DNA of 12,072 nucleotides from the NCBI GenBank assembly GCA_031254915.1, contig JAIRTL010000009.1, forward strand, positions 1 to 12,072. The letters are read 5' to 3'. The notes beneath the pieces were generated by a model. It was not told where the DNA came from and did no database searches. It saw only the letters and a program-made list of their open reading frames with translations. Both the position numbers and the translations under genes were made by a program. This stretch comes from Planctomycetota bacterium. GTDB lineage: Bacteria; Planctomycetota; SZUA-567. Below, one piece after another: positions 1 to 12,072 of the stretch (positions are counted from its first letter, which is position 1; each line of letters opens with the position of its first letter).

Positions 1-1
1 T

Positions 2-36
2 GGCCGCAGCCGTAACAGGTTGCGGCCTTACTCTTT
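2..36 (+). terminator. GC-rich hairpin (GGCCGCAGCC-gtaaca-GGTTGCGGCC, stem 2-11/18-27 with one G.U) followed by a T-rich tract TTACTCTTT. Candidate intrinsic terminator of an upstream plus-strand gene lying outside the window.
   Basis: Inverted repeat read directly from bases 2-27, with T-rich tail 28-36. No coding signal in 1-500. Confidence 0.25.
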
Positions 37-504
37 GGCAATCAAGAACTTGCCGAGGCCGTGGGGGCATACGCATACCCCGCCTTTCCCCATCCCGATC
101 ATTGGCGGGTCTTCGTTGAATCGTTGGAGAGAATCGCACGGCGGGGTGTTTGATTTTCTCCAAAAGTCCACATACCGGGCGCGGCCCGAAATTGTGGCGA
201 TGGGGGATGGGACTGCCCTGTTTCACATCTGCTTCCCTTGGCCGTTTCATGGCCGCGCACAGTTGGGGGGATCACGCCTTCGGACCGTGAACGGCATATT
301 TTCGGCGCGGTCGTTTCCCTCCGATCGACGCCGCGATCATTGGCGCGGCGCTTCGCCGCAATTACCCCTTGGCGGGCAGGCGGCGGCGAGGTATCATGGC
401 GAAGCAGGCGGCGTCGCAAAATCGCGGAACCATGAGCCTCCCCGGCTCGCCGCGCCCGGCCGTCGCCGCGTCATACACATTTTCCGTTCGCGAGGGACGA
501 CATT

Positions 505-2088
505 ATGCCAACCGACGAGGAACTCGATCTGTTGCAGTCCGGAAAACGCTTTCCCCCCAGGAATCCGAAAAAGGGCAAATGGGCCAGGAAGGCGATAAAG
601 ACGATGATTATGGGAACGGCACTGGCGTTCGTCGTCGCCCTCCTCGTCTTTGTCGGCCTGTTCATATGGTACGGCTGCCGGATCGAGCCGGAAGGCGACC
701 AGATCGCCATCCTGATCCGCAAAACAGGCGAGGACCTCAAGGCCAACGAAATCATCTCCACCCGCGACGGGCAGAAAGGGATCAAGCTCGAAACCCTCCC
801 CGCCGGTCGCCACTTCTACAACCCGTACGACTGGGACTGGCAGCTCGCGACCGTCACCAACATCCCGGCCGGCCGCCTCGGCGTGGTGACGCGCCTGTAC
901 GGGGACGAACTCCCCGAGGGCGAGATCATCGCGCCCCCCGGGTTCAAGGGGATCGTCGAGGATATTCTTCGCCCCGGCAAGTACAGGATCAACCCGTACG
1001 CCGAACGGGTCGAAGTGTTCGACGCGATCACAATCCGTCCCGGTCATGTCGGCGTCGTCGCCAACCTCGCCGGCAGGGATCCCCTGCACAGCGATCTTCC
1101 CCCGGAAATGAAAAACGTCTTTATCGTCGGCGAAGGCGTCAAGGGGGTGCAGGACAGGACGCTGGGCCCGGGGACGTATTATCTCAACCCCTATCTCCAT
1201 TCGGTCGTGGAGGTGAACCTCCAGAGCCAACGCTTCGCCCTTCAGGGCGAGGACGCCATCTCCTTCCTCACCCAGGACGGCTTCACCGTCGTGGTCGAGG
1301 GGACGCTTGAATTCGCGATCACCCGCGACAGGGCGCCGCAACTGACCAACCAGGTCGGCGACATGGACGACATTCTCAAGAAGATCGTCCTTCCGAAGGC
1401 GCGCGGCTTTTCGCGGATCGAGGGAAGCAAGCACCCGGCGATCGACTTCATCGTCGGCGAAACGCGGCAGGAATTCCAGAACCGGCTTGAGCAGAACCTG
1501 ATCGCCCAATGCGCGCGCTGGGGCATCGACATCCGCTCCATGCTGATCCGGAACATCACTCCGCCCGCCGAGGTGACGGCGATCATCCGCGAGCGCGAGG
1601 TCGCGCTCCAGAACCAGAAGAAGATCGAGCAGCAGATCGAACAGGCGCGGTCGCAGGCGGAACTGACCCGCCAGGAGATGCTTGCCGTCCAGAACCGGGA
1701 AAAGGTGGAGTCGGAGACGGCGGCGATCCGCGCCCGCATCCAGGCGGAACAGGAGCAATCGGTGAAGATCACCTCGAGCATGCGCGAACTCGAGGTCGCG
1801 AAGCTCGAGGCGGAGGCGGCGAAGCTCCAGGCCGACGCCATCATGATCCGGGCCGAAGCCGACCGCGACGTGGTGAAAATGCGGAACACCGCCGAGGCGG
1901 ACGTCGCCAAGGCGATGGTGGACGCGTTCGGCGGCGGCGTGGACCTTGCCCGCTACACGCTCTACAAGAAAACGGCGCCGCTGATCCAGGCGATCGTCTC
2001 CACCGATCGCGCGCCCGGGTTGGGCGGCATTTTCGGTTCGTTCGCGCCGAAGACGCCCGGCGCGGGCGGCGGCGGACAGGGACGCTGA
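505..2088 (+). CDS. Flotillin-like SPFH/band-7 family membrane protein (paralog A): N-terminal TM/hairpin segment, three tandem PG-x-Y-x-NP repeats, SPFH core, long EA-rich coiled coil, Gly-rich C-tail.
   Basis: The 527-aa ORF has a purine-rich SD (GAGGGA) 8 nt upstream of the ATG. A hydrophobic segment MIMGTALAFVVALLVFVGLFIWYG follows a K/R-rich N-terminus. The SPFH-core-like block is FLTQDGFTVVVEGTLEFAI ... IDFIVGETRQEFQNRLEQNL ... GIDIRSMLIRNITPPAEV. The C-terminal heptad-like EA repeats (LEVAKLEAEAAKLQADAIMIRAEADRDV) are typical of flotillin/FloT/YqiK. The antisense 454-aa ORF 394..1758 is a GC artefact. Confidence 0.85.
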   Translation: MPTDEELDLLQSGKRFPPRNPKKGKWARKAIKTMIMGTALAFVVALLVFVGLFIWYGCRIEPEGDQIAILIRKTGEDLKANEIISTRDGQKGIKLETLPAGRHFYNPYDWDWQLATVTNIPAGRLGVVTRLYGDELPEGEIIAPPGFKGIVEDILRPGKYRINPYAERVEVFDAITIRPGHVGVVANLAGRDPLHSDLPPEMKNVFIVGEGVKGVQDRTLGPGTYYLNPYLHSVVEVNLQSQRFALQGEDAISFLTQDGFTVVVEGTLEFAITRDRAPQLTNQVGDMDDILKKIVLPKARGFSRIEGSKHPAIDFIVGETRQEFQNRLEQNLIAQCARWGIDIRSMLIRNITPPAEVTAIIREREVALQNQKKIEQQIEQARSQAELTRQEMLAVQNREKVESETAAIRARIQAEQEQSVKITSSMRELEVAKLEAEAAKLQADAIMIRAEADRDVVKMRNTAEADVAKAMVDAFGGGVDLARYTLYKKTAPLIQAIVSTDRAPGLGGIFGSFAPKTPGAGGGGQGR

Positions 2089-2089
2089 A

Positions 2090-2809
2090 ATGCCGGAGGA
2101 AGCAGGCGCGCCCGGCGATCGCGCGGAAGCGGTCCCCCGCCACCTCCGGATCGACGGCTTCGACGCCTATGTGAAGGCGGACGGAACCGACTACTGGCGG
2201 ATTCTCCGCACATTTTTGCATGGCGGCGTCGAAGCGGAGAATCTGAAGCACAACCGCGGCAAGCGCAAGGTTCACGCGTTCGATTTCGGGGGCAGGCGCT
2301 ACGTCCTCAAGCGCGACCTGATGCGGAGTCTCGGCCTGCGCCACGTTTTTCCCGGCGGCGGCTGGACCTACCACACCAGGATCATGCGCAAGGTCAACCG
2401 GGCGGTCGATCTCGGCTGCCGCGCGACGCCGGACATCTATCTGGTCGCCGAGAGGTGGAAAGGGAGGTTCCGGCAGGAAGCGTTCGTTCTCATGGAATTC
2501 GTCGAGGGAACGATACTGAGGGACGCCGGCGACGCGGGGAATTACCGCGACGCGATCCGCGAGGCGATGCTGGAAATGCACCGGTTCGGCCTCACGCTGT
2601 CGGACGTCAACAGCCGGAATTTCCTGGTCGGTCCGGACGGGGTGAAAGTGATAGACATCGCCTGCCGCTTCCCGGATTTCCTCTCGATCATCAGGGACGG
2701 GCTCAAGGTCAAGGCGCGGTATAACGTGGAATTGCCGGTCACCGGGCTCATGAACCGGTTCTTTGGATTCGCCATAGCGGTTTTTTACACTCTACGCGGG
2801 AAAACATGA
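2090..2809 (+). CDS. Small protein-kinase-like fold protein of the Kdo/WaaP/InaA lipopolysaccharide-kinase (RIO-like) type, embedded between the two SPFH genes.
   Basis: The 239-aa ORF starts 1 nt after the stop of the upstream gene (TGAaATG) and has an AGGGA SD. It has a Gly-rich loop plus Lys (AFDFGGRRYVLKRD) and a hinge-like acidic/hydrophobic motif (FVLMEFVEGTIL). The catalytic-loop-like block GLTLSDVNSRNFLVGPDGVKVIDIA parallels KdkA ICHTDLNAHNILL...LLDFD (D and N conserved, His replaced by Leu). The C-terminal tail GLMNRFFGFAIAVFYTL is hydrophobic. Comparison to KdkA and PF06293 is from memory, not a search. Confidence 0.7.
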   Translation: MPEEAGAPGDRAEAVPRHLRIDGFDAYVKADGTDYWRILRTFLHGGVEAENLKHNRGKRKVHAFDFGGRRYVLKRDLMRSLGLRHVFPGGGWTYHTRIMRKVNRAVDLGCRATPDIYLVAERWKGRFRQEAFVLMEFVEGTILRDAGDAGNYRDAIREAMLEMHRFGLTLSDVNSRNFLVGPDGVKVIDIACRFPDFLSIIRDGLKVKARYNVELPVTGLMNRFFGFAIAVFYTLRGKT

Positions 2810-4674
2810 TGCGCACAAACAACACAAACGGACTGCATGGGGATACGCCGATGAAAGACGCCGACGTCACCGCCATCACCACGGAAAATACGCTGAAAAA
2901 GGGAGGGCCGGGCTTTCTCCGCCGCCGCTTCGGCCTGATCGGCGGCGCGATCGTCGTTCTCGCCGTCCTTTGGGCGATCTGGTCGTGGGGCTTTTGCCGC
3001 TTCTACGTCGGCCCCGGCCAGATGGCGATCATCACGGCGAAGCGCGGCGATCCGCTGGAATCGGGACAGATCCTCGCCAGGCCGGGACAGAAAGGCGTGC
3101 TCGAAGACGTGCTTGGCGAAGGCAGGCACATCTGGAACCCGGTCTTCTACGACTGGGAGATCGTCGACGCCCAATACATTCCGCCGGGGAAGGTCGGCAT
3201 CCTGACCTCGCTCGTCGGCGAAGACCTTCCCCCCGGCGAGTTCCTCGCCGAACCGGGGCAGAAAGGCATCCGCCGGAAAGTCCTCGGTCCGGGCATGTAC
3301 CGCCTGAATCCGCGCGGCTACAGCATCGAGGTCATCGACGCCATGAGCATCCCCATGGGGTTCGCCGGCGTCGTCACCTACCTCAGCAGCGGCGATCTGC
3401 CGGCGAGCGCCTTCGTGAACGACAACGCCGACGAAAAAACCCGCCGCGACATTCTCCAGCCCGGCATCTATTACATCAACCCCCGCGCCCACCGGGTCAA
3501 CGCCGTCGAGGTCGGCGTCAACCAGGTTTCACTTCAGGGGCAGGACGGAGGCATGATCCTCACCAAGAGCGTCACCTTGGACGAAAACAACCTCATGATG
3601 CAGCGGCTGAACCAGAACATCCTCGCCGAACAGCGTCGGCAGCGCGCCGTCTACCAGCAGGACAGGCTGGGCGAGCAAAGCGCCGACCATTCCATCATGG
3701 CGGAAATGATGAACGACCCCGGCGCGCCCGCCAGGGGAATGCTCCGGAAGTCGCTGCCGTCGGCGCAGGCCCCGGGATCGGTCGACGGCCGCGCCATTTC
3801 GCTGGAAAGGGACGTGGCGCCGGCGATCGTCCTCGACCAGTACGTCAACTTCCCCTCCCGGGACGGCTTCGACATCCGGCTCGACATGACGGTCGAGTTC
3901 GAGCTCCGGCCCGAACATCTCGCTTCGATCTACAAGGTGTACGGCGACCTTCCGAGCGTGGTCGACAAGACAATCATGCCGCAGATCCTTTCCATCTCCC
4001 GGAACAAGGGTTCCGCCTACCGCGCCGTCGACTTCATCGCCGGCGAAGGCAGGGAGAAATTCCAGAACGACCTGACCGACACGCTCAAGGAATCGCTCGG
4101 CAAGGAGGACATCACCATCCACAGCGCCCTCATCCGCAACGTCAACGTCCCGGACCAGATTCTCGAACCGCTCCAGGTCGCGTCCCTGTCGCGCGAGACG
4201 GAACTGACCAACCGGGAAAAGCAGAACACCGCCCGCAAACAGGCCGACCTCAACCGGGAAATGTCGCTCATCAAGCAGTTCGGCGAGCAGGTCATGCAGG
4301 AGACGACCAAGCTCAAGGCCGAGATCGACGCCGAGCGCGAAAAGACGGTGGCGATGATCCAGGCGGACACCCTCCGGCGCATGGCGGCGATCGACAGGGA
4401 AACGGCCGGCGTCAGGGCGCAAAAGGTTGTGGCCATCGGCGAGGCGGAAGCCGATGCGCTGCGTCTGATCGAAATGGAACGCGCCATGGGCTTCGGAATG
4501 AAAGTCGCCGCCTTCGGCGCCGAAAGCGAAAATTTCGCGCTCTACGAATTCGCCAACAGCCTCAACCCGGAAATGCGCATCAACCTGCTCCACGCCGGCG
4601 AGGGAACCCTGTGGACGGACCTGCAGCGCGCCGGCGTCGGCGACCTCGGCGGATCGACGCTGCTGCGCGAATGA
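2806..4674 (+). CDS. Flotillin-like SPFH/band-7 family membrane protein (paralog B): same architecture as paralog A plus an ~85-aa Q/R-rich insertion before the SPFH core.
   Basis: The 622-aa ORF start ATGATG overlaps the kinase stop (ATGA), indicating translational coupling. An alternative start is M16 (nt 2851). A TM-like segment GLIGGAIVVLAVLWAIWSWGF follows KKGG..RRR. Repeats PGQKGVLEDVLGEGRHIWNP.., PGQKGIRRKVLGPGMYRLNP.., LQPGIYYINP.. mirror paralog A. The SPFH core FPSRDGFDIRLDMTVEFEL...VDFIAGEGREKFQNDL...ITIHSALIRNVNVPDQI aligns to paralog A residue-for-residue. The C-terminal coiled coil is EA-rich. The alternate-frame R/P-rich 583-aa ORF 2970..4721 and the antisense 400-aa ORF are artefacts. 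Confidence 0.85.
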   Translation: MMRTNNTNGLHGDTPMKDADVTAITTENTLKKGGPGFLRRRFGLIGGAIVVLAVLWAIWSWGFCRFYVGPGQMAIITAKRGDPLESGQILARPGQKGVLEDVLGEGRHIWNPVFYDWEIVDAQYIPPGKVGILTSLVGEDLPPGEFLAEPGQKGIRRKVLGPGMYRLNPRGYSIEVIDAMSIPMGFAGVVTYLSSGDLPASAFVNDNADEKTRRDILQPGIYYINPRAHRVNAVEVGVNQVSLQGQDGGMILTKSVTLDENNLMMQRLNQNILAEQRRQRAVYQQDRLGEQSADHSIMAEMMNDPGAPARGMLRKSLPSAQAPGSVDGRAISLERDVAPAIVLDQYVNFPSRDGFDIRLDMTVEFELRPEHLASIYKVYGDLPSVVDKTIMPQILSISRNKGSAYRAVDFIAGEGREKFQNDLTDTLKESLGKEDITIHSALIRNVNVPDQILEPLQVASLSRETELTNREKQNTARKQADLNREMSLIKQFGEQVMQETTKLKAEIDAEREKTVAMIQADTLRRMAAIDRETAGVRAQKVVAIGEAEADALRLIEMERAMGFGMKVAAFGAESENFALYEFANSLNPEMRINLLHAGEGTLWTDLQRAGVGDLGGSTLLRE

Positions 4675-4717
4675 CGGCGCGTCCGCCCCCCGTTCCCGGA
4701 AAGGAAAATGACCGCCA

Positions 4718-5284
4718 ATGACGGACGTCATCCGCTGCGGCTGGTGCCTCGGCGCCGAAACGTATACCCGCTACCACGACGAGGAATGGGGCGTGCCGCT
4801 CCGGGACGACCGCGGCCAGTTCGAATTCCTTATTCTTGAAGGCGCGCAGGCCGGGCTTTCCTGGTCCACGATCCTCAACAAACGCGGGAACTACCGCCGC
4901 GCCTTCGCCGACTTCGATCCGGAAAAGGTGGCGCGTTTCACGGACAGTCGGATCGAAAAACTGCTCGCCGACCCCGGCATCGTCAGGAACCGGCTCAAGG
5001 TCAACGCCGCGGTCAACAACGCCAGGCGCTTTCTCGAAGTGCGGGACAAGCACGGGTCGTTCTCCGAGTGGATCTGGTCCTTCGTCGACGGCAAACCGAT
5101 CCGGAACGCATGGCGCAGGCTCGACCAGATTCCAGCCTCCTCCCCGAAATCCGACCGCCTGGCGAAGGAGCTCAAGCGCCTCGGCTTCAAATTCGTCGGC
5201 TCGACCATCATTTACGCGCACATGCAGGCGACAGGCATGATTAACGATCATCTCGTGACCTGCTTCCGCCACCGGGAAGTATGA
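4718..5284 (+). CDS. tag: DNA-3-methyladenine glycosylase I (Tag)
   Basis: The 188-aa ORF has a GGAAAGGAAA SD 9 nt upstream. It collinearly matches the Tag signature: RCGWC, YHDEEWGVP, FEFLILEGAQAGLSWSTILNKRGNYRRAF, GIVRNRLKVNAAVNNAR, FKFVGSTIIYAHMQATGMINDHL.TC. The four Zn ligands Cys/His/His/Cys are present. Confidence 0.93.
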   Translation: MTDVIRCGWCLGAETYTRYHDEEWGVPLRDDRGQFEFLILEGAQAGLSWSTILNKRGNYRRAFADFDPEKVARFTDSRIEKLLADPGIVRNRLKVNAAVNNARRFLEVRDKHGSFSEWIWSFVDGKPIRNAWRRLDQIPASSPKSDRLAKELKRLGFKFVGSTIIYAHMQATGMINDHLVTCFRHREV

Positions 5285-5287
5285 CCC

Positions 5288-6046
5288 ATGCCCGGCCGGC
5301 CGGAGCTGCCCCCAATCATCCCGGGCGTCTACCTCGTCGGTACGCCCATCGGCAACCTCGAGGACATCACCCTGCGCGCGCTCCGGGTGCTTGAATCCGC
5401 CAACGTCCTCGCGGCCGAGGACACCCGCGTCACCCGCAAACTTTTTCAAATCCACCAATTGCAACCACCGAAAACGATCTACGCCTGCAACGCCCACACG
5501 GAGGACAAGGTGGCGGAGCGCCTTGTCCGCCACGCGCAAGCGGGAAAAATCGTCGCCTACGCCTCGGACGCCGGCATGCCCGGCATTTCCGACCCCGGTT
5601 GCCGCATCGCCCGGGCGGCCGCGGCGGCGGGCGCGCATCTCGAGGTCATTCCCGGACCTAGCGCGGTTACGACTGCCATCGCCGCCTCCGGTATCAACGC
5701 CGCGTCCTTCACCTTCCTCGGCTTTCCCTCGCGCCGGAACGGACGCCTGCGGGAAGAACTGCGCCGCCACGGCGCGATGCTCCCGGCACTGGTTTTCTAT
5801 GAATCGCCGCATCGGTTGTCGCGACTGCTCGAAATCGCCAGGGAAATGCTCGGCGACGATCGCAATGCTGCAATATGTCTCGAATTGACCAAGAAATTCG
5901 AGCGTTTTTTCCGAGGAAAGTTGAGCGATGTGAGCGGAATTTTTCGCGATGCGGAAGTCCGTGGCGAAGCGGTGGTTGTGATTGCGGGCAAACGAAAATC
6001 GGCACGCGATTTTGCCGAAGGCGACGAAATACTGATTGACAATTAA
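5288..6046 (+). CDS. rsmI: 16S rRNA (cytidine1402-2'-O)-methyltransferase RsmI (tetrapyrrole-methylase fold)
   Basis: The 252-aa ORF starts 3 nt after the tag stop. The N-terminal motif GVYLVGTPIGNLEDITLRALRVLESANVLAAEDTRVT and the block ASDAGMPGISDPG...IPGPSAVTTAIAASG are characteristic of RsmI. Confidence 0.9.
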   Translation: MPGRPELPPIIPGVYLVGTPIGNLEDITLRALRVLESANVLAAEDTRVTRKLFQIHQLQPPKTIYACNAHTEDKVAERLVRHAQAGKIVAYASDAGMPGISDPGCRIARAAAAAGAHLEVIPGPSAVTTAIAASGINAASFTFLGFPSRRNGRLREELRRHGAMLPALVFYESPHRLSRLLEIAREMLGDDRNAAICLELTKKFERFFRGKLSDVSGIFRDAEVRGEAVVVIAGKRKSARDFAEGDEILIDN

Positions 6047-6063
6047 AACCGGATCCATACCAT
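6036..6063 (+). promoter_or_regulatory. Sigma70-like promoter candidate for the downstream small gene: -35 TTGACA (6036-6041, inside the last codons of rsmI), 16-bp spacer, -10-like TACCAT (6058-6063).
   Basis: Hexamers read directly from the sequence. The -10 lies inside the 26-bp palindrome. Promoter consensus for this unknown lineage is assumed to be E. coli-like. Confidence 0.3.
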
Positions 6064-6077
6064 ATATGGTATGGATC
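6052..6077. promoter_or_regulatory. 26-bp perfect palindrome GATCCATACCATATATGGTATGGATC. Candidate repressor operator with an NrdR-box-like AT core. Alternatively an RNA hairpin between rsmI and the downstream ORF.
   Basis: Perfect dyad symmetry verified base by base (6052-6064 pairs with 6065-6077). It sits 6 nt after the rsmI stop, overlaps the putative -10, and ends 20 nt before the start codon of the NrdD-like ORF. The central 16 bp ATACCATATATGGTAT matches about 12 of 16 positions of the NrdR-box consensus acaCwAtATaTwGtgt as I recall it. Confidence 0.4.
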
Positions 6078-6096
6078 GTTGTGAAAGGGACGAAAT

Positions 6097-6420
6097 ATGC
6101 AACTTATGGCGTTTTACGAACACGTGGAGAAGCACCCGGAACTGGAAGGCTTGGGGATCGAGTCCGGTTGTGTCGACAAGAGCGCGGGGGTGATTGTCAA
6201 AAATACCCAAAACAATCTCATGACCCGTCTGCCGGTCGCGGCGATCGAAGCGGCTGACTGGGATGTGATCGAGGATGTGCTCCTTGGCAAACGCGAACCG
6301 CAAGTGTTGCAGCACATGACCCGTGTCGTCGGTTACTTCAGCCGGGTCGAAAACTGGAACAAGTCCAAGGTCGGCGAACTCAGGGACCGCCACAAAGGCG
6401 ATTACTCCGTCGCCGGCTAG
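6097..6420 (+). CDS. Stand-alone glycyl-radical-domain protein homologous to the C-terminus of anaerobic (class III) ribonucleotide reductase NrdD. Possible spare-part or autonomous glycyl radical cofactor analogous to GrcA/YfiD.
   Basis: The 107-aa ORF has an SD AAAGGGA 7-13 nt upstream. The C-terminal motif TRVVGYFSRVENWNKSKVGELRDRHKG matches the NrdD glycyl-radical signature (T-R-V/I-C/V-G-Y ... N-x-G/S-K ... E ... D-R). The same RVxGY motif is shared with PFL and GrcA. There is no catalytic barrel or Zn-ribbon Cys cluster, so it is not a full NrdD. Confidence 0.65.
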   Translation: MQLMAFYEHVEKHPELEGLGIESGCVDKSAGVIVKNTQNNLMTRLPVAAIEAADWDVIEDVLLGKREPQVLQHMTRVVGYFSRVENWNKSKVGELRDRHKGDYSVAG

Positions 6421-6574
6421 TGGATAGCCGAGATCGAGAACGAGGTTCTGGGCGTTTTGCGAAGTTGAATGGACGTCCCATTGCGCATTTCGGCTTGTCC
6501 CATCGCATTCCAAAACGCCAGGTCTTTCGCAATAATCGGGCAACATACCCAAAACGCGGCATCCCCCCGACCTC

Positions 6575-6604
6575 GCGGTCGCCCCACTCCCCCGGGGCGA
6601 CCGC
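6575..6604. terminator. GC hairpin GCGGTCGCCCC-actccccc-GGGGCGACCGC (11-bp perfect stem) in the 315-bp gap between convergent genes. Candidate bidirectional, U-tract-less terminator or other structured RNA.
   Basis: Inverted repeat verified base by base. It lies 155 nt downstream of the plus-strand ORF ending at 6420 and about 130 nt downstream of the minus-strand regulator stop at 6736. No flanking U-run on either strand. Confidence 0.3.
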
Positions 6605-6735
6605 TCCATTTCGCCCCATATATGACTGCCGCAATGCGGGCAATCGCCCGATATGCCTGGCTGGCGGGGAGTCTTTTTTGAAAAAGGGCTTCCCTCCGGC
6701 GCGCTTTCGGAGATGTCCAGGGGGAAGCGGGGCGA

Positions 6736-8994
6736 TCAGCCGCCAATGAGGCGTTCGAGTTGGATTCTTGCGTTACGGAGCGCTTCGGCGGGCGTTTCTT
6801 TTCCCGAGACGGCGGCGTAGACCGCGCCGCCGAGGATGTTTTCGAACACCCGTTCCTCCACTTTTCCCCCGGTCGTGACTTTCGAGATGTTTCGTTCCCG
6901 GCTTTTGGCGAAGCTTTCCACCGATTTCGGCAGCCACGGATACAGGGCGCAGAGTTCGGAGTTGTGATAGACCTTGTTCGCGGGCGGCGCGCCGCCGAGT
7001 ATGGCGAGCGGGATCACGAGGTCTTGGTCGCAGGTCCAGCCGATGAAATCGAGCGCCGAATCGCGCGACCGGCTTTCGCGGTTGACCCCTAAGGTCCAGC
7101 CGCCAAGCATCGGCTTGCCGCCGGGGATGATGTCGTACCCGATGCGCCCGACCACCTTCGAGACGCGCCGGTCGGCGAGCGACGACACGTGCGCGAGGAA
7201 GAGGATCATCATCGCGGCCTGGCCGTCGCCGAAAAGCGCGGCCTGTTCATCCCACCAGAAGTCCTTCGAACCGGGCGGCGCGTAGCGGTAGCTTTCGGCG
7301 TAATTGGCGAGCGCGGCTTCCGCCTCGCGGCTGGCGAGGGAGTCGAGCATGTTTCCAGCCCCGAACGCGCCTTCGTGGAACGAGAGGAAGCGGGGCAGGA
7401 ATTCGCACACCGCGCCGTTCGGGTATTGTCCGCCCAGGGTGGTTCCGTATTCGGTCGGCGAATCGGGATTGAGCGATCTGGTGAAAAACGCCGCGATCTG
7501 ATTGAATTCGTGCCAGTTCCTGGGTGCGCGCAGTTCGTAACGGTAGCGCTTCCGGAAAGCGAACTTGAGGTGCGGGTCGTCGAACAGGTCCTTCCGGTAG
7601 AAAAGAATCTGCGCGCCGAAGAGGAACGGCACGGTATAGCATTTCCCCCCGTGCCGGCAATAGGCGTCGAGCACGCCGGGCAGCCAGGCCGAGGCGAGGC
7701 CGGGGCGGCTGTCGAGCCAGGCGTCAAGCTGGTGGAGAAGGCCGTCCTCGGCGGCTTCTCCGAGCCAGGGCTGGTCGACCTGGAAAATATCGTATTGGGA
7801 GCGCCGGGCCGGATCGCGCAGCAGTTCGCCGATCTCCACGACCGAGCGCTTGTCGATCTCCACCCTGACGCCGGAATTCTTCTGGAACGCGGGAAGCAGC
7901 GCCTCCACGGCCGAGCAGGCGCCGCCGGCGAGCATGAGCGCGCGCAGCACCCTGCCCCGTCCGCGCAGCCTTACCGATTTCCCGATCGTCGGGCCCTGGT
8001 CGGCGTCGAAGCGGGCGTTGTCGACGATCCGCCGCCTGTTCTTCGCGTCGTCGCTCCCGGAAAGCATGCCCAGAAGCAGCGCGGCCGCGCTTTCGCCAAG
8101 CTCCATGGCGTCGCGGCGCAACACCCTCGCCCCCACCGGCGACGCCGGCGCCCAGGATTCGATGCCTAGGCACACAAAGGCGGGCCCGTTGTCGAGTTCG
8201 AGCATCTTCACCGCCTGCCGCGCTCCGGCGAGGAGCTGGCTGGAGGTGGTGATGATTACGTCCGGCGGCGGCGCGACGCCGAGCCTGGAGACAAGTGCGC
8301 TAAAGGCGCTTTCCTTGTTGAAGTTCGTTTCGACCACCAGCCAGTCCCTCGGCGTCCCGCCAAAACGGTCGCCAAGGCCGTCGAGAAAACCGGCGGCATA
8401 GCCGGCTTCGCTCGAATTCTCGCGCGGTCCGGCGAGAAGCAGGGGATTGCGGCAGCCCTCAGCCAGCAATTGGCGCACAAGGTCGCGCATATGCTTTTCG
8501 CCGTCGAAGCCGACGAACGGGAAGACGCGGCGATGCGGCTCGCGCTCGACGAAAACAAACGGCGTGCCGTTGTCGTAGACGCTCTGGAACATCGAGGCGG
8601 AATCGGGCTGGCAGGTGACGATGACGATGCCTTCGGCGTTCTGCTTCACGAACTGCCCTATCGCGCGCTGCTCGCGCGCCTGAATCTCCGAAGTGGTGCA
8701 GAGCTGGACGACATAGCCGTTTTCGCTCAATACCTGGTTGACGCCGGCGTAAATGCCGGCGAACGTGGCGTCCTGAACCGACGGCAATACGACGCCGATG
8801 CACCTGGTCTTTCTCGCCTTGCCGCCGGAACGGGCGGGAAAATGCGCGCGGTAGCCGGTCTTGCGAATCGCCGCCTGAACGCGTTGGACCATGGACAAGC
8901 TGACCCGGCGATCGCCCTTGAGAACATTCGAGACCGTGCCGACAGATACGCCGGCCGCCTCCGCAACGTCCTTCATCGTCGCCTGAAGCGCCAT
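6736..8994 (-). CDS. Fusion transcriptional regulator: LacI-family HTH + LacI-type (PBP type I) sugar-binding domain + a complete family-1 extracellular solute-binding-protein (MalE-like, PBP type II) domain.
   Basis: The long minus-strand ORF is 770 aa from the first in-frame Met at 9048. The likely true start is MALQATMKDV (nt 8994) or MKDVAEAAG (nt 8976), giving about 750 aa. HTH: MKDVAEAAGVSVGTVSNVLKGDRRVSLSMVQRVQAAIRKTGYRAH, a canonical LacI/PurR motif. Residues about 80-340 have the LacI ligand-domain pattern (IGVVLPSVQDATFAGIYAGV...YVVQLCTT...IVIVTC). Residues about 370-770 show SBP_bac_1 features (FQKNSGVRVEID..., YDIFQVDQPWLGE, YTVPFLFGAQILFYRKDLF, WWDEQAALFGDGQAAMMI, GGWTLGVNRES). 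There is no signal peptide, so it is cytoplasmic. The overlapping plus-strand ORFs (e.g. 7189..8169, 8470..9435) are artefacts. Confidence 0.8.
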   Translation of the reverse strand: MALQATMKDVAEAAGVSVGTVSNVLKGDRRVSLSMVQRVQAAIRKTGYRAHFPARSGGKARKTRCIGVVLPSVQDATFAGIYAGVNQVLSENGYVVQLCTTSEIQAREQRAIGQFVKQNAEGIVIVTCQPDSASMFQSVYDNGTPFVFVEREPHRRVFPFVGFDGEKHMRDLVRQLLAEGCRNPLLLAGPRENSSEAGYAAGFLDGLGDRFGGTPRDWLVVETNFNKESAFSALVSRLGVAPPPDVIITTSSQLLAGARQAVKMLELDNGPAFVCLGIESWAPASPVGARVLRRDAMELGESAAALLLGMLSGSDDAKNRRRIVDNARFDADQGPTIGKSVRLRGRGRVLRALMLAGGACSAVEALLPAFQKNSGVRVEIDKRSVVEIGELLRDPARRSQYDIFQVDQPWLGEAAEDGLLHQLDAWLDSRPGLASAWLPGVLDAYCRHGGKCYTVPFLFGAQILFYRKDLFDDPHLKFAFRKRYRYELRAPRNWHEFNQIAAFFTRSLNPDSPTEYGTTLGGQYPNGAVCEFLPRFLSFHEGAFGAGNMLDSLASREAEAALANYAESYRYAPPGSKDFWWDEQAALFGDGQAAMMILFLAHVSSLADRRVSKVVGRIGYDIIPGGKPMLGGWTLGVNRESRSRDSALDFIGWTCDQDLVIPLAILGGAPPANKVYHNSELCALYPWLPKSVESFAKSRERNISKVTTGGKVEERVFENILGGAVYAAVSGKETPAEALRNARIQLERLIGG

Positions 8995-9254
8995 CACTCC
9001 GCCCCCGTCCAAAAATCCGGCCCCGACCCCGGCTCCATGCTTTCGCACCCGCCCTCACCCCGGATCGGCGTTTTCAGCCGGGAGGACGGATGGAGCGATA
9101 CCGCTTCCAGCCAATTAGTGCTTTTTTGCGTCCTTGCAGCTTCCCGCGTTCCACTTCGCGCCATTGTTTTCGAGGGCGTTGGACCAGTCGAGGGAACGGC
9201 AACTTTCGACCGGAAAAGGCATGCGCCCGTTTGTTGTCGCAATCCCCCGCGCTT

Positions 9255-9277
9255 CCCGGGCCGCTGCGCGGCCCGGG
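9255..9277. other. Very stable GC hairpin CCCGGGCCGC-tgc-GCGGCCCGGG (10-bp stem, 3-nt loop) inside the 440-bp spacer between the transporter operon and the regulator gene.
   Basis: Perfect inverted repeat 9255-9264 / 9268-9277, with no adjacent U-tract. A second, longer-range inverted repeat GAGAACGCGG (9334-9343) / CCGCGTTCTC (9396-9405) lies between it and the binding-protein gene stop. Confidence 0.3.
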
Positions 9278-9431
9278 GCGGTTGCGGAGGGGAAATCGCG
9301 TTGTTCGCTCGCTTCCAGCGCACAGTCAATTTGGAGAACGCGGATAACGCCCGCAGGGTACCGCGGGACAATGGGGAAATCGACTATGCCCAAAACCGCG
9401 TTCTCAATCCCGACTATCCACTGGAGCATTT

Positions 9432-10403
9432 TTAGAAGCGCGGCGGGTTCTTGTACATGGCGCTGGTATCCTTGTCCAGGATACGGACGCCGGTGTCGAT
9501 GCCGGCGACGGGTACGTGACCGAAGCCTTCGAACATCGAGGGGATTTCGGTGGGGTGGTGCGCGGCATAGGCGAGCATCATGGCCTGGTAGCCCATGAGG
9601 TAAGGGTTCTGGCCGACGGTGCCCTTGATTTCGCCCTTTTCGATGAGTTCGATGACGGGGAGGCCGAAGTCGAAGGCCATGATCTGGACCTTGCCCTGGA
9701 GGCCGAGGGAGCGGACGGCGGCGGCCGCGCCGGGGCCGGGGTTGCCGTGGGCGCCGAAGATGCCGTTGATTTCCTTGTTGGCCTGGAGCATGGCGGTGAG
9801 CTGCGTTTCCGCCTTGGCGACGTCGCCTTCGTCGTTCACGACCGCGACGATCTGGGCGCCGGGCGCGACTTCCTTGAGGCCGGCCTCAAAGCCGTCCTGG
9901 CGGTTCTTGAGGTGGTCCGGGCCGGGGAAGGTGCAGATGCCGATGCGGGCGTCGTTGCCGAGCCATTCACCCATCGCCTTGCCCGCTTCGTAGCCGGCCT
10001 GGTAGTTGTTGGTGCCGACGAAGCACAGGCGGTTGGAGGCGGGAGCGTCGGAGTCGAAGGTGATGACCGGGATCTTGGCGCGGATGGCGCGGTTGATCGC
10101 CGGGACCAGGGTGTTGGCTTCGCCGGCGGTGACGATGACGCCATCGATCTTCTTGGCGACGAGCTGTTCGATGGCGCGCGCTTCGAGGGTGGCGTCCCAT
10201 TCGGCCGGGCCGTGGAGTTCGGTCTTGACGTGGGGGCCGATCGCCGCGGCGGCGTCGATCATGCCGGCATACGCCCAGTTGAAGAATTCGGAGCCCTTGA
10301 GGAACACGACCATGCCGTAGGTCTCGGTCGGACGCTCTTCGGCGCATGCCGGGGCGGCGAACGCCGCGAGCACGACCAATGCCGCTACCAGAAGTTTCTT
10401 CAT
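9432..10403 (-). CDS. Sugar ABC transporter periplasmic substrate-binding protein (RbsB-like, ribose/xylose/arabinose PBP type I family) with N-terminal signal peptide.
   Basis: The real start is MKKLLVAALVVLAAFAAPACAEE (ATG at 10403), preceded by a perfect AGGAGG 7 nt upstream (plus-strand CCTCCT 10412-10417). The 5' extension of the track ORF to 10949 is Arg-rich junk. The mature domain MVVFLKGSEFFNWAYAGMIDAA...IDGVIVTAGEANTLVPAINRAIRAKIPVITFDSD...GTNNYQAGYEAGKAMGEWL is typical RbsB-type. The AAPAC sequence is not a canonical lipobox, so it is probably SPase I-cleaved. Confidence 0.9.
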   Translation of the reverse strand: MKKLLVAALVVLAAFAAPACAEERPTETYGMVVFLKGSEFFNWAYAGMIDAAAAIGPHVKTELHGPAEWDATLEARAIEQLVAKKIDGVIVTAGEANTLVPAINRAIRAKIPVITFDSDAPASNRLCFVGTNNYQAGYEAGKAMGEWLGNDARIGICTFPGPDHLKNRQDGFEAGLKEVAPGAQIVAVVNDEGDVAKAETQLTAMLQANKEINGIFGAHGNPGPGAAAAVRSLGLQGKVQIMAFDFGLPVIELIEKGEIKGTVGQNPYLMGYQAMMLAYAAHHPTEIPSMFEGFGHVPVAGIDTGVRILDKDTSAMYKNPPRF

Positions 10404-10474
10404 TGCATAATCCTCCTGCATCCATTCACAAGCCGCGCCACACGCGAGGCGAAAAGTATTTCTCCGGTCCGCCG

Positions 10475-11434
10475 TCATTTCCGCCGGCGGTTGAACACGA
10501 ACTCGCCCACGAGCACCGCCAGAAGAAGCATGCCGCCGTTGACGATGTCCTGCCAGTAAGTGGAGATGCCGGTCATGACGAAGGAGCCGTTCACGACGGC
10601 GAGGAAAAGCACGCCCAGAAGCGTCGACAGAATGGTGCCGCTGCCGCCGGAGAGGCTGGCGCCGCCGACGGCGACCGAGGTGATGACCTTCATCTCGGCG
10701 TTCTGCCCGAACGAATTGTTGGCGGCGCCGTATTGCGCGGCGACGATCACGCCGGCGACGCCGGCGAGAAGCGAGCACAGACCGTAGACGAAATAGCGCA
10801 TGCGTTCCACCCGGATGCCGCTCAGGCGGGCGGCGCGCTCGTTGCCGCCGATGAAGTAGACCTGGCGCACGTAGCGGTTGCAGCCGAGGAACACGGCGGC
10901 GAGGACGGCGAGGACGGCGAAGAAATACATGGGGATGGGGATTTCCCATAGGTACCCCTGCCCCATCTCCTGGAAGGGGTCGGGGAAGCCGAACAGGGTG
11001 CGGCCGTCGGTTATGGCCAGGTTGAAGCCTTTGAGGGTGAGCATCATCGCCATGGTGACGATGAACGGATGCACCCTGAGCAGGTTGATCAGTTTGGCGT
11101 TGACGAGCCCGATCGCGATCGAGGCGACGAGGGCGATCGCGACCGCGAGTCCCCAGTGGAGCCCGGCGTTCATGCCCATTGCCGCCGCTATCGCCGCCAT
11201 CGGCAGAACGGCGCTGATCGAAAGGTCGATGCCGCCCGTGATGATGACGAGCGTCATGCCCAGAGACATGATCGCTTCCGGGAGGAAGGACATGAGCGTC
11301 ACCTCGATATTGAACGGCGACAGGAATTCCCCGTAACGCGACGCCATGACGACGATGATGACGGCGTTGGCGAGGATGAGGCCGATGTACTGGAGAGGCA
11401 GACGCTGGAACAGCGATTTGTCAGTTGGCCGCAT
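10475..11434 (-). CDS. Sugar ABC transporter permease (RbsC/AraH-type, BPD_transp_2 family)
   Basis: The 319-aa polytopic membrane protein carries the motif MTLVIITGGIDLSISAV and the family-typical block GGNERAARLSGIRVERMRYFVYGLCSLLAGVAGVI. Its start ATG (11434) overlaps the upstream ATPase stop by 14 nt, indicating translational coupling. Confidence 0.9.
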   Translation of the reverse strand: MRPTDKSLFQRLPLQYIGLILANAVIIVVMASRYGEFLSPFNIEVTLMSFLPEAIMSLGMTLVIITGGIDLSISAVLPMAAIAAAMGMNAGLHWGLAVAIALVASIAIGLVNAKLINLLRVHPFIVTMAMMLTLKGFNLAITDGRTLFGFPDPFQEMGQGYLWEIPIPMYFFAVLAVLAAVFLGCNRYVRQVYFIGGNERAARLSGIRVERMRYFVYGLCSLLAGVAGVIVAAQYGAANNSFGQNAEMKVITSVAVGGASLSGGSGTILSTLLGVLFLAVVNGSFVMTGISTYWQDIVNGGMLLLAVLVGEFVFNRRRK

Positions 11435-12072
11435 AGCGCATCACCTTGGTCTGGGAAAGATTGTCGTTCTGCAAGTCCGCGGACACGCCGCCGTTCCGGA
11501 ACACGAGCACCCGGTCGGAGAGTCCCAACACCTCGGGGAGTTCAGACGAGATGACGATGACGCCGACGCCGCTTTCGGCGAGCTGTCTCAGGTACTGGTG
11601 GATTTTCACTTTCGCGCCGATGTCGACGCCGCGCGTCGGCTCGTCGGCGACGAGGATGGTCGGCTTCGCCGCCAGCCATTTGGCGAGCATCGCCTTTTGC
11701 TGGTTGCCGCCGGACAGGTTGATGATGTTGAGGGTGTCGTTTCGGGGACGAATGTCCAACAACTCGAGGAAATCCTCCGAAACCGCCCTGACCTTGTCGA
11801 AATCGAGGAACTGGAGCTTCGACGAATAGGCGGGCAGGGACGACGAGGCGATGTTCCGCCGCACCGACATGGTGAGGAACAGCCCGAACAGCTTTCTGTC
11901 CTCGGACAGGTAGCACACGCCCTGGCGGATCGCGTCCCCCGGACCGCGAATATCGACTTCGCGGCCCCGCAGGACGATTTTGCCCGAAGACGGCCGTTCG
12001 GCGCCGAAGACGGCGCGCGCCGTTTCCGTCCGGCCGGAGCCGACGAGGCCGGCGAAGCCGAGGATCTCGCCT
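11421..12072 (-). CDS. Sugar ABC transporter ATP-binding protein, RbsA/MglA-like with two NBDs. Only the C-terminal second NBD lies in the window (5' end beyond the window edge).
   Basis: Reading frame is open to the window edge. Second-NBD Walker A: GEILGFAGLVGSGRTE. Signature LSGGNQQK, Walker B ILVADEPTRGVD, then VIVISSELPEVLGLSDRVLVF and a C-terminal ...MRYAAN stop at 11421. The track ORF 11421..11918 is just the Met-initiated tail of this frame. Confidence 0.85.
   Translation of the reverse strand, partial: GEILGFAGLVGSGRTETARAVFGAERPSSGKIVLRGREVDIRGPGDAIRQGVCYLSEDRKLFGLFLTMSVRRNIASSSLPAYSSKLQFLDFDKVRAVSEDFLELLDIRPRNDTLNIINLSGGNQQKAMLAKWLAAKPTILVADEPTRGVDIGAKVKIHQYLRQLAESGVGVIVISSELPEVLGLSDRVLVFRNGGVSADLQNDNLSQTKVMRYAAN

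Follow-up and report, generated by a model that had tools for sequence, protein, structure and literature searches.

Tandem SPFH1-Like Units in a Paralogous Pair of Membrane-Anchored Bacterial SPFH Proteins

A contig of a Planctomycetota metagenome-assembled genome (MAG; JAIRTL010000009.1, positions 1 to 12,072, this stretch of 12,072 nt being referred to below as the window) carries two paralogous genes, A and B, that encode SPFH proteins in which an N-terminal transmembrane (TM) helix is immediately followed by three tandem units, each about 57 aa long. Sequence profiles and structural models support the view that what was duplicated is the five-stranded SPFH1 subdomain as a whole, giving a predicted architecture of TM-SPFH1-SPFH1-SPFH1-SPFH2-CC1-CC2 (CC, coiled coil). 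A and B probably represent a type-II membrane-anchored SPFH pair comparable to HflK/HflC, in which the membrane-proximal SPFH1 has been triplicated and the wall would be raised by the extra layers. Architecturally, the pair is a new variant within the SPFH family, with tandem modules resembling SPFH1 and the major vault protein (MVP) repeats, and this variant is widespread and, as far as the literature searched shows, undescribed.

Three Tandem Units in Both Proteins

Pfam identified A and B as the Band_7/SPFH open reading frames (ORFs) of the window, both on the (+) strand, with Band_7 (PF01145, clan CL0433) scores of 98.8 bits for A (identical to NCBI LBJ46_00905) and 67.2 bits for B against a gathering cutoff of 23.6. 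An SPFH alpha/beta fold followed by long coiled-coil helices also places them in this superfamily. The TM helix of A is preceded by a Lys/Arg-rich tail which, by the positive-inside rule, suggests an N-in topology with the remainder of the protein in the periplasm, and B likewise starts with a Lys/Arg-rich tail and one TM helix.

The unit regions lie at nt 679–1224 (A) and nt 3001–3534 (B), and the boundaries of the individual units are given in Table 1. Their consensus is I-P-x-G-x-x-G-V-x-T-R-L-x-G-x-D-L-x-x-G-x-I-x-A-x-x-x-G-x-K-G-I-x-x-E-V-L-x-P-G-x-Y-x-x-N-P-Y. Within it, the motif [IL]-[PR]-x-G-x-x-G-[VI]-[VL] is found at A120, A177, B125 and B182, and P-G-x-[YH]-x-x-N-P at aa 157 and 222 of A and aa 162 and 219 of B, with the variant A-G-R-H-F-Y-N-P around aa 99–107 of A. 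A preliminary description of this DNA had reported three consecutive repeat units in each paralog, which the analyses below bear out, but its period of about 50 aa is too short, the measured value being about 57 aa (65 aa for the third unit of A). It also placed the start of the repeats at nt 766; repeats are indeed present there, but the structural unit begins about 29 aa further upstream, and the earlier frame corresponds to a circular permutation of the domain.

Table 1. Coordinates of the SPFH genes, their domains and the ORF between them (nt positions in the window).
Feature	Position	Strand	Description
Protein A	505–2088	+	527 aa; TM helix, three SPFH1-like units, SPFH2, coiled coils, Gly-rich tail
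TM helix of A	592–675	+	aa ~30–57, after Lys/Arg-rich tail; helix 25–57 in AlphaFold2
Unit A1	679–861	+	aa 59–119; extra SPFH1-like module; sole unit with the invariant NPY-x-W-x-W aromatic loop
Unit A2	862–1032	+	aa 120–176; extra SPFH1-like module; weak Band_7 match, profile positions 3–40
Unit A3	1033–1224	+	aa 177–240; canonical SPFH1 running on into SPFH2; 8-aa insertion
SPFH2 alpha/beta core of A	1225–1566	+	aa 241–354
Long helices of A, CC1/CC2-like	1567–2001	+	aa 355–499; helices 355–405, 409–474 and 478–499 in AlphaFold2
WaaY/RfaY-like lipopolysaccharide-core kinase ORF	2090–2809	+	239 aa, between A and B; Pfam PF06176, 2e-13
Protein B	2806–4674	+	622 aa; paralog of A, same TM and three-unit layout, ~100-aa insertion in SPFH2
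Unit B1	3001–3177	+	aa 66–124
Unit B2	3178–3348	+	aa 125–181
Unit B3	3349–3534	+	aa 182–243; start of Band_7 match

Smith-Waterman comparisons between the units gave z-scores of 7.5–27, and none of the 500 shuffles made for each pair reached the observed score, the exceptions being the weak pairs A1-B3 and B1-B3. Profiles of the first, second and third units (U1, U2 and U3), derived from 89 orthologs, matched one another with hhalign probabilities of 96.5–98.7% and E-values of 1e-9 to 1e-16, and the SPFH2 part matched none of the three. The matches between the unit profiles show that units 1 and 2 are homologous to unit 3. Each unit of A contains an invariant Lys-Gly pair (K91-G92, K148-G149 and K213-G214), which is kept in 86–89 of the 89 orthologs. 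The near-invariant G-x-K-G around it has decayed to N-A-D-E-K-T in unit B3 of this genome only, other B orthologs having GQKG or KQKG. About 120 residues of each protein are currently covered by no Pfam model, leaving a gap in the annotation.

Protein B differs from A by an insertion of about 100 residues in the SPFH2 core (aa ~245–345), and the Band_7 match of B therefore covers aa 182–480 for a profile of 176 positions. The same insertion is present in B orthologs from two further MAGs, one in Kiritimatiellia and one in Planctomycetota (loci L001 and L003).

The Unit Corresponds to SPFH1

The preliminary description had the third unit merging into the canonical SPFH start, and the profile data agree: the Band_7 match begins, at profile position 3, with B182, the residue that opens unit B3, and the sequence GPGLFFILP of human stomatin aligns with PGTYYLNP in unit 3 of A. 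When the units were searched in isolation, weak matches to Band_7 positions 3–40 were obtained.

An AlphaFold2 model of A, made with an alignment of 89 sequences, has a predicted local distance difference test (pLDDT) score of 93–98 over the repeats. In this model all units have a common strand pattern, consisting of a 7-residue strand, two bridges and strands of 7, 3, 7 and 3 residues. A separate model of units 1 and 2 gave a pLDDT of 94.9 and a predicted template modelling score of 0.83. The modelled units superpose on SPFH1 of prohibitin, erlin, HflK/C, stomatin and QmcA, and can be assigned to SPFH1, or the ECOD 'MVP repeat' H-group 3529.1. SPFH1 is the membrane-side subdomain of SPFH proteins (beta1–beta5), with aromatic residues that touch the membrane (PMC12624060). 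An ECOD-based survey described an 'MVP repeat' domain N-terminal to SPFH/Band 7 in archaeal SPFH-type proteins (PMC13607799), which we read as occupying the SPFH1 position.

The homology of units 1 and 2 to unit 3, the position of the third unit at the canonical SPFH start and the single fold shared by all units together indicate that the N-terminal element of the SPFH domain has been triplicated. This much had been proposed before, but for the first beta-hairpin; in the models the copied element is instead the entire five-stranded subdomain.

Conservation, Distribution and Copy Number

Clustered at 90%, the family of A comprises more than 1400 members. In a scan of GTDB, relatives were encoded by 288 species genomes, which belong to Planctomycetota, Verrucomicrobiota/Kiritimatiellia, Lentisphaerota (Victivallis vadensis), Desulfobacterota (isolate Desulfoferrobacter suflitae DRH4) and Gammaproteobacteria (Chromatiaceae, Competibacter). 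Gene arrangement and unit number were determined at 80 loci fetched from among the GTDB relatives, and at 72 of these there is an adjacent, same-strand pair of ORFs that both carry units. Exactly three units are found in 151 of the 152 such ORFs. In a neighbour-joining tree, U1 and U2 of A and B group by position, and this clustering across the paralogs places the triplication before both the A/B duplication and the split between Planctomycetota and Kiritimatiellia. Nucleotide identity among the units (43–59%) likewise indicates an ancient rather than a recent event. The triplication is ancient and is fixed in both paralogs across several phyla.

A wider range of copy numbers was seen when the profile of a single unit was searched against 1.84 billion representative proteins, which returned 1363 proteins at E <= 1e-3 with 2–15 matched stretches each. 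Among the best 150, those that also had a recognisable SPFH2 carried 3 (70 proteins), 4 (7), 5 (11), 6 (4), 7 (2) or 8 (1) copies, and the repeats directly abut Band_7 in every case examined. The number of repeats in homologs, which had been put forward as a check, is three in nearly all ORFs of the A/B pairs at the fetched loci and 3 to about 15 in wider bacterial relatives. A 7-copy relative is present in cultured Geomonas species, including Geomonas subterranea. Cyanobacterial proteins of 1300–1800 aa (P0121, P0129, P0131 and P0197, from Symploca sp. and Iningainema tapete, MAGs as well as isolates) have 9–15 units followed by Band_7 and a C-terminal VWA domain. Weak matches to CshA adhesin repeats also occur in the multi-copy cyanobacterial relatives. 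The vault partner PARP4 has a VWA domain as well, which may be coincidence.

Comparison with the Major Vault Protein

In a Foldseek search with A the top match was MVP, with the whole query aligned (about 540 columns, compared with 250–340 for other SPFH proteins). The tandem repeat region of MVP, which the preliminary description did not name, is the closest structural analogue of the units: in both cases tandem five-stranded beta modules (about 55 aa) lie directly before an SPFH-like domain, the shoulder in MVP, and a long helix. The likeness extends only to fold and architecture. Matches to Pfam Vault (PF01505 and relatives) or MVP_shoulder (PF11978) were absent from A and B (E <= 1), from single units (E <= 10) and from the multi-copy relatives (E <= 0.01). 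When the U1, U2, U3 and pooled unit profiles were compared by hhalign with repeats R1–R9 and the shoulder of vertebrate MVP, the probability was below 7% throughout, a negative result that is not exhaustive since the MVP profile was vertebrate-only, drawn from the best 120 matches listed (the MVP sequence itself was checked against PDB). A sequence-level link to the MVP repeats was rejected on the basis of these comparisons with Pfam and with vertebrate MVP and of the lack of any PDB match to the unit profile.

The two systems also differ in organization. MVP is a soluble, cytosolic protein of eukaryotes with nine repeat domains, an SPFH-like shoulder and a cap helix, two half-vaults being paired through its free N-terminus, whereas A and B are bacterial and presumably periplasmic, have three repeats, are encoded as a pair and carry a TM anchor immediately before unit 1. 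Prokaryotic homologs of MVP have been reported, with proteins more than 50% identical to MVP in Myxococcales, Cytophagales and Oscillatoriales (bioRxiv 10.1101/872010) and five repeats in the MVP-like proteins of Asgard (PMC12962969). Like A and B, these have several repeat modules before an SPFH-type domain, but they are identifiable as MVP from sequence or from reciprocal structure hits, whereas the A/B family is not; the latter is membrane-anchored and is part of a bacterial set of its own, far larger, in which copies number 3 to about 15. A 2026 paper describes the domains of MVP as 'unique to the vault' (PMC13100048). In the literature searched, no description of tandem SPFH1 in bacterial SPFH proteins was found, and internal repeats go unmentioned in the survey of prokaryotic SPFH subfamilies by Hinderhofer (2009).

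Gene Context

The kinase ORF between A and B (Table 1) also matched NCBIfam RfaY (1e-23), below the cutoff of that model. An ORF of this type occupies the same place only in the closest relative (L005, in which A is 82% identical), and most genomes have A immediately beside B.

The rest of the window appears to be unrelated, and includes genes for a methyladenine glycosylase, a TP_methylase-family methyltransferase (probably RsmI-type), a fusion of LacI and solute-binding protein (SBP) domains and a sugar ABC transporter. The fusion is an unusual one: a 770-aa ORF at 6736–9048 (−) joins a LacI-type helix-turn-helix and Peripla_BP_1 sensor to a full solute-binding domain (SBP_bac_1/SBP_bac_8), and it adjoins the sugar ABC transporter at 9432–11918 (−). 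A small ORF of 107 aa at 6097–6420 (+) matches only the extreme C-terminal tip of the anaerobic ribonucleotide reductase NrdD (PF13597 positions 532–561, E 1.3e-5), and may, like GrcA/YfiD, encode a glycyl-radical 'spare part' protein that stands alone.

Discussion

Like HflK/HflC, prohibitin 1/2 and erlin 1/2, A and B have an N-terminal TM helix, SPFH1, SPFH2 and CC1/CC2, and their paralogous genes stand side by side, an arrangement that in the case of HflK/HflC accompanies a heteromer and that is seen at 72 of the 80 loci; for A and B the heteromer is a prediction. They differ from these cages, which have one SPFH1, in having three. Another difference is the insertion in SPFH2 of B. The earlier statement that flotillin and HflK/C carry a single copy is correct, and one SPFH1 is also found in erlin and prohibitin (PMC12624060). 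Membership of HflK/HflC proper was rejected, the equivalog scores being far under the cutoffs.

In the manner of other SPFH pairs, A and B probably assemble into a ring or cage in which the two alternate, placed on the periplasmic side of the inner membrane, with the extra SPFH1 layers stacked end to end in the manner of MVP repeats in the vault barrel; the stalk or ring envisaged in the preliminary description would be an assembly of this sort. Only unit 1 has the invariant N-P-Y-x-W-x-W aromatic loop, with W110 and W112, and it is therefore probably this unit that keeps the contact with the membrane. Units 2 and 3 would then lift the SPFH2 ring and the helical dome away from the membrane, and the lifted ring would enclose a taller compartment. 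Copy number would, on this model, set the height of the wall, and a role as wall or spacer is in keeping with the variable number of units in relatives.

Several observations weigh against A and B as an HflK/HflC-like pair with a raised SPFH1 wall. The NCBIfam scores were 29.6 bits for hflK (TIGR01933), where 159.4 is required, and 18.7 for hflC (TIGR01932), where 134.4 is required, and protein B had no NCBIfam hit. The unit profile found no match at E <= 10 among all PDB sequences, canonical SPFH proteins included. The Lys-Gly of each unit sits in an insertion that canonical SPFH1 is without. Unlike in HflK/HflC, neither ftsH nor any other conserved client or partner gene was found beside the pair in the three neighbourhoods read (the window, L001 and L003), which by itself says little for or against an association with FtsH.

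The invariant Lys-Gly, together with the weak CshA adhesin-repeat matches and VWA domain of the cyanobacterial multi-copy relatives, could alternatively mean that units 1 and 2 derive from SPFH1 but have been repurposed as a module for binding a ligand or partner (for example peptidoglycan, a periplasmic protein or a lipid head group), any extension of the wall being incidental. This is unlikely, as the Lys-Gly is equally conserved in unit 3, the ordinary SPFH1, no Pfam binding domain was matched, and a range of 3 to about 15 copies is more readily reconciled with a spacer or wall than with a specific binding site. A still smaller likelihood attaches to A and B being true bacterial orthologs of MVP that assemble into soluble, closed, vault-like particles. 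The top Foldseek match, over the entire query, is MVP, and the order of repeats, SPFH domain and long helix is the same, but neither the proteins nor their multi-copy relatives match the Vault or MVP_shoulder families, the hhalign comparisons with vertebrate MVP were negative, there are just three repeats, the genes are organised as a heteromeric pair, and the TM anchor sits at the end through which half-vaults touch at the waist in MVP.

A chance or compositional similarity between the units, or a recent assembly or duplication artefact in the DNA, is hardly credible. The sole DNA repeat cited in the preliminary description, the 11-mer caacccgtacg, is no more than expected: it merely codes for N-P-Y, it occurs at 819 and 990 rather than at 823 and 992, and 152 distinct 11-mers recur in the window (about 37 in shuffles). 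The units are nevertheless similar at the protein level, as given by the z-scores and the profile-profile E-values above, three are kept in nearly every ORF of the pairs from 80 genomes, and their nucleotide identity is that of an ancient event. A recent duplication of DNA was accordingly rejected, the 11-mer being unremarkable and the nucleotide identity of the units low.

The solved SPFH cages (HflK/C, QmcA, prohibitin, erlin, stomatin and flotillin) have one SPFH1 layer each, and the vault has been treated as the lone exception, of obscure origin. The occurrence of tandem units, 3 to about 15 SPFH1/MVP-like modules between membrane anchor and SPFH2, in a large bacterial group that takes in at least 288 species genomes, including the cultured Desulfoferrobacter suflitae, makes tandem expansion of SPFH1 a recurrent way of building SPFH proteins. 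It is a tentative and rather doubtful extension of this that the A/B family and the relatives with 4 to 15 copies form an undescribed class of membrane-anchored, barrel-walled SPFH cages, with wall height given by the number of SPFH1 modules; if it is true, they would be living examples of a route from an ordinary SPFH cage to the vault barrel. These bacteria offer tractable systems for asking whether repeat number governs the height and volume of a cage, and by what route a membrane-bound SPFH ring can give rise to a vault-like barrel.
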